Shown one piece after another: positions 109-4,118 of a stretch of DNA of 31,924 nt. The position numbers were made by a program, and so were the translations under genes. Origin of the DNA: an uncultured Candidatus Saccharimonas sp. GTDB taxonomy: Bacteria; Patescibacteriota; Saccharimonadia; Saccharimonadales; Saccharimonadaceae. How positions within the stretch are numbered: position 1 is the first letter of the stretch; every line of letters begins with the position of its first letter. Location of the stretch: the NCBI GenBank assembly GCA_964452965.1, contig CAYVRA010000001.1:1-31924 (forward strand). Reading direction: 5' to 3'. The notes under the pieces are model-generated. The model had not been told where the DNA came from, did no database searches, and saw nothing but the letters and a program-made list of their open reading frames with translations.

Positions 109-219
109 CGCTGTAGTTATCTTGGAGTTTAAAAAGTTTTCACCTTTTTTCCCATGTTTATCATTATTGAGCCTTATCTATGCGATAGCAAGCTATATAA
201 CTTATCACGTAAGTGTAGT

Positions 220-278
220 TTTTCACTAATGATTCCGAATAGCGAGCGAGGCTTATTATGCCCGCTCGCTACTCATCA
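220..278. repeat. Copy 1 of a duplicated hairpin element (putative structured RNA)
   Basis: TTTTCACTAAT-N6-GAATAGCGAGCGAGGCTTATTATGCCCGCTCGCTACTCATCA. The stem-loop spans 237-274 and is nearly identical to 552-610. Confidence 0.85.
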
Positions 279-403
279 GATTATTACAGCGCACATTGCG
301 CTGAAATTTTACCTTCCGAAATTTTCTCGGGCGGTTTTAAATATAGATTTTTTACCACTTTAATGGCCATTTAAATATAAATAAAACAGCCCTAGCCTAA
401 ATT

Positions 404-499
404 ATGAAGAAGGAGAGATGGAAAATGAGAATGGCGACCTTTTCAATAGTGATGTTAATGATATTGATCATAGTGACTTTGCTACGAGCTTTTATCTAG
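404..499 (+). CDS. Small hydrophobic peptide MKKERWKMRMATFSIVMLMILIIVTLLRAFI (31 aa, or 24 aa from ATG 425); type I toxin-like
   Basis: Hand translation gives a basic N-terminus plus one uninterrupted hydrophobic stretch. AGGAG at 411-415 lies 9 nt before ATG 425. A terminator follows at 660-698. Confidence 0.45.
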   Translation: MKKERWKMRMATFSIVMLMILIIVTLLRAFI

Positions 500-551
500 A
501 ACCATTAAGCATTATACATCTATAGGTAGGATATATAGCTTACCACGTGAC

Positions 552-610
552 TTTTCACTAATTGCACTGAATGGCGAGCGAGGCTTATTATGCCCGCTCA
601 CCATTCATCA
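552..610. repeat. Copy 2 of the duplicated hairpin element
   Basis: TTTTCACTAAT-N6-GAATGGCGAGCGAGGCTTATTATGCCCGCTCACCATTCATCA, with the stem-loop at 569-606. Confidence 0.85.
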
Positions 611-659
611 TCTCAATGTACGCTATTGTAATAATCTGATTTTTATTTAGCATTTAATT

Positions 660-698
660 CCAACTTTTGCGAGGCCTGTCCTTGCAAATGGGTTTTTT
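660..698 (+). terminator. Intrinsic terminator on the plus strand
   Basis: The stem TTTGCGAGG/CCTTGCAAA (one G-U pair on plus) is followed by TGGG and a T6 tract. Confidence 0.55.
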
Positions 699-751
699 AT
701 GTTATGGTTACGTTTTAAACGCTAACCCTACGAAGCCTTGGCGAATTAGGG

Positions 752-2041
752 CTATTTTTTCGTGCTTAATTCGACTAATCGCTCGACGGCTTTCTCAGTC
801 AATAATTGATTAGCAACCTCTTGACGAATTTCAGGTTGTTCGAACTGCTTTAACGCTTCAGGCGATTTAGCATATTGCTGACGATATGTTTCAATACGAG
901 CATCCAGTTCAGCGCTAGTAGCCTCAATTTTTTCTAATTTGCTAAGTTCAGCTAACACCAAACCAGCTTGGACACGTTTAATCGCAGCATCTTTCACCTC
1001 AGTTTCAATCCATTTTTCTTCAGATTCAAAACCCTTATTTTCAAGATATTGCGCTAATGACGAACCACGATACATCAAATTATTTGTAAAATCTTTTTTA
1101 ATCGATTCAGTTTGATCAGCAATTAAAATCTCGGGTACCGGCACATGACTCAATTTAATCAACTGACTAACTAAGCTATCTTTTAGCTTATCGCTTAACT
1201 CACGCTCTTTTTGAGTGGTTAGTTCGCGCTTAATATCAGCTCTTAAGTCAGCAGCAGTCTTGAATGGGCCAGCCTTGGCAGCCAGCTCATCAGTCAACTC
1301 GGGCGTCGCAACTTCTTTTACAGCCACTAACGTGGTTGTAAATGTAACTTTAGCACCCTTTAATTCAGCCGAGCCGTAATCAGCAGGGAAAGTTAAGTCA
1401 AGGTCAAAAGCATCACCAGCCTTATGGCCAACAACGCCTTCTTCGAAGCCAGGAATAAATTGGCCAGATCCAAGAGTTAATGGGTAATCGTTACCGGTGC
1501 CACCGTCAAACGCCACGCCATCTTTTTTGCCAATAAAATTAATTACGGTTTCGTCGCCCATCTTTGCGGCACGATCTACGTCTTTCTTTTCGGCAAAGCC
1601 CTTACAAACTCTTTCGATAATCTCATCGACTTCAGATTCGGCAATATTTATTTTTTCAACAACTGCTTTTAGTTTTTTATAGTTACCTAATTTTACCATT
1701 GGCAAAATATCAACTTCAGCCGTAAATTCTAGCATTTCGCCTGGAACCATTTTTTTAACCTCAACCGCTGGACGATCTAAAGCTCGTAACTCTTTTTCGA
1801 CAAAGGCTTCAGCCACAGCTTTACTAATAGCATTATTTAAAGTCTCTTCATGCAACGTCGCTGGATCGATATTCTTAGCAGCTACGGCAACTGGGGTTTT
1901 GCCTTTTCTAAACCCCGGAACCTTTACTTCGCGTGCTAATTTATTAGTAGCGACTTGCTCAGCAATTGCTAATTCTTCGGCGTTAACTGAGATTGTTAAT
2001 TCAACCCGAGTATCGGATAAGTTTTTGACAGATATTTTCAT
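752..2041 (-). CDS. tig: Trigger factor
   Basis: Ribosome-binding signature VPGFRKGK, FKBP-type PPIase domain (F.GG...DY.L.LGSG.FIPGFEE), 429 aa. Confidence 0.97.
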   Translation of the reverse strand: MKISVKNLSDTRVELTISVNAEELAIAEQVATNKLAREVKVPGFRKGKTPVAVAAKNIDPATLHEETLNNAISKAVAEAFVEKELRALDRPAVEVKKMVPGEMLEFTAEVDILPMVKLGNYKKLKAVVEKINIAESEVDEIIERVCKGFAEKKDVDRAAKMGDETVINFIGKKDGVAFDGGTGNDYPLTLGSGQFIPGFEEGVVGHKAGDAFDLDLTFPADYGSAELKGAKVTFTTTLVAVKEVATPELTDELAAKAGPFKTAADLRADIKRELTTQKERELSDKLKDSLVSQLIKLSHVPVPEILIADQTESIKKDFTNNLMYRGSSLAQYLENKGFESEEKWIETEVKDAAIKRVQAGLVLAELSKLEKIEATSAELDARIETYRQQYAKSPEALKQFEQPEIRQEVANQLLTEKAVERLVELSTKK

Positions 2042-3390: not shown

Positions 3391-3418
3391 AAAAAGGCCT
3401 TCTCTAAGGAGAAGGCCT
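3391..3418 (-). terminator. Intrinsic terminator of the 223-aa gene
   Basis: Perfect 10-bp stem AGGCCTTCTC/GAGAAGGCCT followed by a T tract on the minus strand. Confidence 0.75.
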
Positions 3419-3446
3419 GACCTAAGTGGTCGATTAATAGAAAATT

Positions 3447-4118
3447 TTAATACTCTCCAGCCCGTAAGTTCCTAAAAACCGGCCTAATAGCCCGACTGCT
3501 CATATTAACCCCGCGTACGCCTTCTATAAACACATAAGGTTTACAAGAAATATTACAGGTTGAAAGCATTATTTGTCTAGCATCAGCGCCATGCCCAAAT
3601 GTAAATGCCGGCACTAGTATACTCCCGACCAAACTTAAGAGATCTGGATATAAGACTATAGCATTAAAAATCTCAGTCCCCGCCCAGTATGATCCTTCTT
3701 TTAGGTCGTTCGACTCATTTAATAAATCCAGCACCGCGAAGCGAACGCCGCGAAGATAAGGTGCTGTATCTATAATAAAATCATCTTCATCCTTTTTGAG
3801 ATGGTCTCGCATACAACCATGGCTAAATTCTTCATCGTAAACTTGCCTCACTAGGTTAAGATGTCCATCGATATTCCGCCTGTAGTGCATAAATCCGCTG
3901 TCTTTAGACTTGGAGTGCGAATCAACATAGATCACAGGTATACATAGCTCCCCTTCCTTCAGTACGAGATTGTTTGGAATTAAGGTATTACACACATCAT
4001 CTGTCGATATACCCCAGTAATCCATAGCTCGAATAATCTTCTCTGTTTTTAACAAAAGTTGCCTTAGTGATTGGCTAGCTACTATTTCTTTAAACAACGA
4101 TAAATCTGTCATTATCAA
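3447..4118 (-). CDS. Hypothetical protein (223 aa)
   Basis: Long ORF with SD-like GAGGTGA upstream and its own terminator. No family recognised. Confidence 0.75.
   Translation of the reverse strand: MIMTDLSLFKEIVASQSLRQLLLKTEKIIRAMDYWGISTDDVCNTLIPNNLVLKEGELCIPVIYVDSHSKSKDSGFMHYRRNIDGHLNLVRQVYDEEFSHGCMRDHLKKDEDDFIIDTAPYLRGVRFAVLDLLNESNDLKEGSYWAGTEIFNAIVLYPDLLSLVGSILVPAFTFGHGADARQIMLSTCNISCKPYVFIEGVRGVNMSSRAIRPVFRNLRAGEY

Follow-up and report, generated by a model that had tools for sequence, protein, structure and literature searches.

The window analyzed here is the entire 31,924-nt contig C1 from the assembly of an uncultured Candidatus Saccharimonas sp. (702 kb in 77 contigs, 39% GC, 82.5% completeness), whose histidyl-tRNA synthetase clusters with those of Candidatus Saccharimonadota. 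Its left end carries, on the plus strand, the 3′ part (75 codons, positions 2–229, from the ORF list) of a gene for a small hydrophobic membrane protein, referred to as gene X, which is cut by the contig start. The encoded C-terminus reads ...SYITYHVSVVFH and is followed by a stop codon at 227–229; no homologues were retrieved when the 75-aa fragment was searched in 60 genomes of the genus. Downstream lie hairpin 1 (237–274), an A-type bounding motif (275–304, plus strand), two short overlapping ORFs, hairpin 2 (569–606), and a B-type bounding motif (608–640, minus strand) that is inverted relative to A. The terminator scan placed an intrinsic terminator (stem and T run; 666–698, plus strand) just past the B motif and a second one (734–759, plus strand) overlapping the stop codon region of the convergent tig gene (752–2041, minus strand), such that two plus-strand terminators stand back to back between the B motif and tig. 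The first of the short ORFs is hydrophobic (404–499, plus strand; 24–31 aa depending on whether ATG 404, 425, or 431 is used; stop at 497–499) and displays a Shine–Dalgarno (SD) sequence, AAGGAG, at 410–415, 9 nt before ATG 425, from which the peptide MRMATFSIVMLMILIIVTLLRAFI would be translated. The second, acidic and 35 aa long (418–525, plus strand), overlaps it in another frame, and this frame continues into a remnant of gene X.

Comparisons employed a set of 62 genomes of the genus, a wider control of 300 genomes from elsewhere in the order (12 of them representing other genera in the family), and, for cassette statistics, 31 A/B motif pairs of the genus. Public runs containing window DNA are freshwater and wastewater metagenomes, with no RNA run among them. 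DNA upstream of the window start was sought using the exact trigger-factor protein, which returned only a 4.7-kb Logan contig ending at window position 415.

A Duplicated Gene End

The first-pass annotation of this DNA had described two 59-nt elements 332 nt apart, and these are confirmed as a direct repeat (220–278 and 552–610) with 85% identity. The weaker similarity that had been noted to their left is real and extends further than claimed, to approximately 157 and 491. Across the full repeat (~157–278 versus ~491–610), the local alignment score is 114, compared with 40 ± 6.5 for shuffled sequences, and overall identity is 72%. While the earlier description was accurate, it missed that the 3′ coding end of a gene, including its stop codon, lies inside the repeat. 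As delineated by local and global alignment, copy 1 (157–278, plus strand) takes in ~24 C-terminal codons of gene X with the stop codon and, after a 7-nt gap, hairpin 1. Alignment and translation show that copy 2 (491–610, plus strand) consists of a decayed remnant of the gene X C-terminus followed by hairpin 2.

In the frame of the acidic ORF, the remnant reads ...LSIIHL, a stop, VGYIAYHVTFH, and a second stop at 559–561, where the matching end of copy 1 reads ...LSLIYAIASYITYHVSVVFH and a stop; alignment with copy 1 places indels of 4, 1, 1, and 6 nt in copy 2. The sequence TTTTCACTAAT, common to both copies, contains the last codons of gene X and the stop codon. Conservation is uneven along the repeat, with 42 of 68 columns identical in the coding remnant, 11 of 11 in TTTTCACTAAT, 1 of 6 in the spacer, and 34 of 38 in the hairpin, and the distance from stop codon to hairpin start is 8 nt in both copies. 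The repeat is a duplicated gene end plus its downstream stem-loop, with the second copy decayed. Because it includes the 3′ coding end and stop codon of gene X, the hairpin falls in a plus-strand 3′ UTR; because the coding end is covered in frame in copy 2, the two copies can be read as paralogous 3′ ends of the gene cassettes described below.

Hairpin Fold and Strand Preference

When folded on the plus strand, hairpin 1 closes a 7-nt loop with 15 pairs, broken by a single bulge and a single A–C mismatch (239/272). Hairpin 2 has the same core, a lower stem of TGG/CCA rather than TAG/CTA, and a C575–A600 mismatch on plus. The invariant core reported in the first-pass annotation is a 24-nt identity, GAGCGAGGCTTATTATGCCCGCTC, which occurs exactly twice in the window (two matches arose in 0 of 100 shuffles) and nowhere else in the 702-kb genome. 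For 76-nt segments containing the hairpins, folding z-scores range from −4.6 to −6.2 on both strands, and an equally stable fold was found in 0 of 200 shuffles. For the 38-nt hairpins themselves, the energies of copy 1 and copy 2 are −22.3 and −22.8 kcal/mol on the plus strand, compared with −25.6 and −25.7 kcal/mol on the minus strand. All 16 pairs on the minus strand are kept between the copies, one of them through a compensatory change (A–U to G–C), in agreement with the observation that the differing lower stems stay paired. Three pairs differ on one side only, and each of these changes yields an A–C mismatch on plus and a G–U pair on minus, an asymmetry that had been noted for one mismatch per copy. 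A proposed minus-strand extension of copy 1 (CUGAUGA/UCAUUAG) is partly present in the minimum free energy structure but absent from the centroid and from copy 2.

The two copies share a 26-nt identical run, which has a probability of ~0.006 at the overall identity of 72% and points either to constraint on the hairpin or to a conversion patch. Taken with the compensatory pair and the poorly conserved spacer, some constraint on the hairpin structure, conserved above its flanks, is plausible. The further proposal that selection acts on a structure read from the minus strand is unsupported: the preference rests on two or three transitions (chance P of 0.125–0.25, not significant), and the equivalent stem-loops of the 31 related cassettes are without strand bias, 13 favoring sense and 17 antisense. 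As only two copies of the hairpin exist, covariation statistics cannot apply.

A minus-strand RNA would carry the hairpin as its 5′ stem-loop and could act as an antisense RNA, for example of the type I antitoxin kind, against gene X or the 24-aa peptide. The unbroken standard pairing on minus, with G–U at each one-sided change, and the gain of ~3 kcal/mol in fold are in line with such an RNA. So is the A motif read in reverse complement, TGTAATAAT: it looks like an extended −10 element placed, on the minus strand, 6–8 nt upstream of hairpin 1. At copy 2, however, the motif points the other way, so no equivalent promoter faces hairpin 2, and the sole minus-strand promoter-like site near that copy has its −10 inside the hairpin loop. 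A plus-strand stop codon located within the repeat at a fixed distance from the hairpin also argues against an antisense RNA, as do the nonsignificant transition count and the unbiased cassettes. Comparison with type I toxin–antitoxin systems is similarly mixed. Shared features are the 24–31-aa hydrophobic ORF, which has a good SD and is flanked by structured elements, and the slightly more stable folding of the hairpins on the opposite strand. Unlike in those systems, the antisense side offers only promoter-like sequence matches, and at other loci large secreted proteins and an enzyme are enclosed by the same bounding motif. We regard an antisense RNA as quite unlikely.

Search for a Wider Hairpin Family

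The first-pass annotation had put the hairpin forward as a candidate new RNA motif, and searches at several levels found no family to which it could belong. Rfam models run over positions 1–1000 with a permissive E-value gave best scores of 10–19 bits, compared with thresholds of 40–440, and none overlapped the hairpins meaningfully; Rfam at gathering thresholds over the related cassette loci gave no match. A covariance model built from both copies (R1) retrieved no homologue beyond those two copies from the 62 genomes of the genus. Its weak matches, with E values of ~4e-4 to 8e-4 per genome, were rejected because they fall within a conserved ORF of 331 aa and have three of the pairs broken. 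The exact core 20-mer has five matches in public genomes and metagenomes, all in unrelated bacterial coding DNA (47–69% GC) and attributable to chance. The presence of GCTCACCA in copy 2 hinted at the remains of a tRNA or tmRNA, an idea likewise discarded when ARAGORN identified only two distant tRNA-Leu genes.

The hairpin pair is in no known RNA family and defines no new one. No Rfam family matches at the hairpins, attC boxes are absent, and the element has only two copies. REP/BIME elements number tens to hundreds per genome, unlike the window element, with its two copies in 702 kb and none in 61 relatives.

An Inverted Motif Bounding Gene Cassettes

Each hairpin copy adjoins a motif of ~22 nt (TCAGATTATTACA plus GTGCAYGTC), and the two motif copies of the window, recognized as an inverted repeat and in the motif list, are inverted relative to each other. 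In the A-type motif, the core TCAGATTATTACA is followed directly by GCGCACATTG, and a local hairpin spans 287–303. In the B-type motif, read on the minus strand, the core TCAGATTATTACA (639→627) is separated by the insert ATA from GCGTACATTG (623→614). The window version combines the core with the second module GCGYACATTG. The core is found at eight places in this genome, mostly as convergent pairs, including C22:3408/3875 (3408–3887) and C57:1353/2796 (1353–2808) in the motif list. Across the genus, the exact 13-mer core gives 81 matches in 36 of 62 genomes, compared with 2 for the reversed control, and these matches almost always form pairs, plus then minus, 0.35–4.4 kb apart. Further loci with the motif in the genus are L004, L013–L019, L021, and L027–L043. 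The composite of core and second module is absent from the 300 other genomes of the order save for one chance-like match; judged from these genomes, the motif seems to be restricted to one genus.

Alignment of the 31 pairs revealed a uniform architecture. The A copy, with consensus TTAACAAR-TCAGATTATTACA-GTGCAYGTC, is free of inserts and adjoins the gene start in 31/31 cassettes, and the gene direction is A to B in all of them. The B copy is inverted and holds 2–23 extra nt between its modules, with some of these inserts forming small hairpins. In 25 of 31 cassettes, A is preceded at a distance of 50–66 nt by the end of a strong, conserved promoter of the form TTGACA-N17-TGnTAnnnT. The A motif is thus predicted to be transcribed and to lie in the 5′ UTR, and the idea that the A motif is itself the promoter was rejected given the canonical one upstream. 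The promoter is followed by a leader of ~50 nt with a hairpin of variable sequence, and the spacing of 50–66 nt to the A motif is nearly constant even at nonorthologous cassettes; such promoter-leader units lie ~110 nt upstream of each A in L013–L017, L019, L021, and L027–L042, and at C22:11418–11507 in the genome of the window. At the distal end, a stem-loop stands just before the B′ motif in 30 of 31 cassettes, and beyond B′ comes either an intrinsic terminator or the next gene. Hairpin 2 occupies exactly this pre-B position.

The enclosed cargo is diverse and mostly orphan, comprising small membrane proteins, Pro/Thr-rich secreted proteins, and one polysaccharide deacetylase. A Pfam search of ten cargo proteins gave a single match, to the deacetylase, which also carries a carbohydrate-binding (CBM) domain. 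The position of the motif is kept at orthologous loci across species. Where cassettes are arrayed, B-(21–24 nt)-A junctions form imperfect palindromes of ~70 nt (L033 596–644, L031 1236–1282, and L021 625–673). No literature was found on the motif sequences or on inverted repeats or RNase III in Saccharibacteria, and this genus-wide cassette bounded by an inverted repeat seems to be undescribed.

Several neighboring features were also recorded. The second module of A (GTGCAYGTC) and the next ~10–15 nt form a local hairpin after most A motifs, with a U-rich tail in 11 of 31 cassettes; this hairpin could serve as an attenuator or as a structure alternating with A:B′ pairing. At the syntenic cassette for a Pro/Thr-rich protein, a gene for an LPXTG-type surface protein lies 40–60 nt past B with no terminator between (C57:90–1319 in the genome of the window; orthologues in L013–L017 and L036–L042), and a divergent tRNA-Glu gene lies on the other side.

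Proposed Role of the Hairpin as a Cassette 3′ Stem-Loop

Because 30 of 31 cassettes have a stem-loop before B′, the hairpin can be read as the 3′ stem-loop of a cassette that was duplicated with the gene end. On the sense (plus) mRNA, its role would be that of a barrier to exonucleases or of a structural element. We consider this the most likely reading and give it about an even chance of being correct. An internal 3′ stem-loop would stall 3′ exonucleases or help to shape the 3′ end of the mRNA, and it would adjoin a long-range helix in which the A motif of the 5′ UTR pairs with the B′ motif at the 3′ side.

Bacterial 3′ UTR stem-loops, including Rho-independent terminators and REP-type stabilizers, offer the closest parallel: the window element is also a GC-rich stem-loop a few nucleotides past a stop codon, is conserved above its flanks, and sits where a block to 3′ exonucleases would act. 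Like a Rho-independent terminator, it has a GC-rich stem-loop (−22 to −26 kcal/mol), but the U tract is lacking. The hairpins are followed by ATCAGATT and ATCATCTC on plus and by GGAATCAT and AGTGCAAT on minus, and neither the terminator scan nor the sequence reveals a U tract directly after either hairpin on either strand; the canonical terminator is found further downstream, at 666–698. The sense-mRNA reading thus does not amount to classical termination. Other observations count against it as well. Both hairpins contain an A–C mismatch on plus and are ~3 kcal/mol weaker there, and copy 1 is not followed by a B motif, unlike the usual B-(21–24 nt)-A junctions of cassette arrays.

Origin of the Duplication

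The missing B motif may find its explanation in how the repeat arose. A 76-nt stretch (276–351) is repeated exactly at a second locus (100% identity), giving two assembly paths. Contig C22, which contains rpoB, ends in 55 nt (C22:11508–11562) identical to window 276–330, the overlap length of the assembler, and this end supplies a strong promoter and leader before the A motif. In Logan contigs of the source run, the C22 end leads through 276–351 into different DNA that is absent from the binned genome and is homologous to window 357–384 (score 28, compared with 13.6 ± 2.7 for shuffles). The order within the window is backed by independent contig pieces covering 90–281, 201–351, 311–461, 367–517, 415–1500, and 526–678, and the assembly branch point falls exactly at the junction of hairpin 1 and A.

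Judging from the assembly graph, the simplest path that uses every branch once would join C22 in tandem to the window start, giving the order C22 promoter and leader, A, gene X, hairpin 1, A, remnant, hairpin 2, B, terminator. The ancestral unit would have consisted of an A motif, 5′ UTR, gene X, stem-loop, and B motif; the segment from A motif to stem-loop would then have been duplicated in tandem, with the downstream copy losing most of its coding part. The duplication junction, CTCA-TCA-GATT, contains the microhomology TCA, and the absence of a B motif after hairpin 1 would follow from an A-to-hairpin duplication with this junction. Given 100% identity over 276–351 and 72% over the 3′ repeat, selection or gene conversion is needed beyond simple duplication.

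The same data bear on whether copy 2 is a functionless, neutral relic whose hairpin looks conserved only through chance, a recent patch of gene conversion, or the correction of quasi-palindromes by intrastrand template switching. It sits in what is left of a decayed pseudogene, interrupted by an in-frame stop and by indels, the element has two copies only and no relatives in the genome, the genus set, or public collections, and the exact 76-nt identity between loci indicates that sequence exchange occurs here. These points are offset by the improbable 26-nt identical run, by an adjoining spacer that retains only 1/6 identity, and by the fact that a stem-loop at the pre-B′ position is the rule among cassettes. 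A purely neutral origin consequently appears unlikely.

Proposed Pairing between Cassette Ends

The A and B motifs of a cassette co-vary. Among 14 distinct combinations, 12 matched deviations from consensus were counted, compared with a mean of 4.1 and a maximum of 11 across 10,000 re-pairings. The clearest single case is the L021 cassette from relative genome G003, which carries TCAAATCATTACA...GTGCACATC at both ends, while its neighbor, 24 nt away, carries the consensus; the adjoining B and A at this junction disagree at four positions, in contrast to the matching ends of a single cassette. The A/B pair of the window likewise shares GCGYACATT. Cognate A:B′ RNA duplexes would contain 22–23 bp with a 2–3-nt bulge and a mean energy of −30 kcal/mol (−25.0 kcal/mol in the window). 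They outperform re-paired duplexes, with a P value that is generous given that orthologous loci are not independent. Differences between A and B that involve G–U are compatible with the sense strand in 24 instances and with the antisense strand in 10, although 13 of the 24 derive from one position at orthologous loci.

Co-variation within genomes favors a folded nucleic-acid helix over a protein site on duplex DNA. The tolerance of variable inserts on one arm only and the location of both ends on one predicted transcript favor a folded helix as well. Pairing at the RNA level, in the form of an mRNA panhandle, would account for these features.

A site acting at the DNA level, with the hairpins, alone or together with the inverted motif, serving cassette gain, inversion, or excision in the manner of attC sites, MITE ends, or invertible switches, would also explain why inverted repeats of 22–30 nt bracket variable orphan cargo, why arrays have palindromic B-(21–24 nt)-A junctions, and why the hairpin has a bulged base. 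The assembly branch point at the hairpin 1/A junction is another feature in its favor. Integron cassettes and attC sites provide one comparison, sharing short variable cargo ORFs, imperfect intercassette palindromes, and unpaired bases on one arm. The window stems, however, start with GAATAG or GAATGG and end with CTACTC or CCATTC, lacking the AAC...GTT boxes, the R″/R′ core sites, and the RYYYAAC/GTTRRRY consensus of attC. Furthermore, the co-varying arms flank an ORF (A with B of one cassette) rather than forming the two arms of one junction, and most cassettes have their own promoter. No integron integrase was detected near the window, and the single tyrosine recombinase (PF00589) of the 82.5% complete genome is on contig C12.

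MITEs, IS ends, and invertons offer a second comparison, as they also present conserved inverted repeats around segments, here of 0.35–4.4 kb. The present case differs in that the hairpin elements are direct repeats, in that A and B are inverted but flanked by no target-site duplications, and in that the motif stays at orthologous loci across species with no transposase or invertase nearby. Pfam revealed no transposase domain in the ten cargo proteins. No second orientation, as expected of an invertible switch, was observed: 31/31 cassettes are uniform relative to the promoter, and contigs of four runs, at low depth, contain no inverted joints. The variable inserts of 2–23 nt between the halves of B are also more readily reconciled with a folded helix than with a protein binding at a fixed site in duplex DNA. 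Overall, a DNA-level site appears very unlikely.

Implications

The hairpins are real, yet as the outcome of a local duplication they are ordinary; what matters is their setting. A conserved inverted repeat found only in one genus brackets fast-evolving orphan genes; its polarity is fixed, the promoter and leader are conserved, and its ends co-vary. A broader model, which we offer tentatively and consider possible though not probable, is that of a genus-specific "closed cassette" in a freshwater, Saccharibacteria-like genus. Each unit would comprise a strong promoter, a structured leader, and a 5′ motif of 22–30 nt whose inverted copy in the 3′ UTR would pair with it across the entire gene, with stem-loops just inside both ends. 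The resulting panhandle could be an RNase III-type processing or stabilizing device for orphan surface and membrane proteins, with new cassettes generated by duplication.

In bacterial rRNA operons, RNase III processing stems enclose the 16S and 23S rRNAs. The cassettes resemble this arrangement in having complementary flanks of ~22 bp around a whole gene, placed between promoter and terminator, with ends that co-vary and complementarity of at least 20 bp (22–23 bp), and an rnc gene for RNase III is encoded in the genome of the window. They differ in enclosing protein-coding genes (orphan, membrane, secreted), for which cleavage is hypothetical, and in that one conserved sequence is reused at 1–3 loci per genome in what seems to be a single genus. 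If the cassette ends do pair in the mRNA, they would represent a rare case of systematic long-range pairing between the 5′ and 3′ ends of bacterial protein-coding genes and would provide a route into gene expression and mRNA turnover in the ultrasmall, uncultured Patescibacteria.
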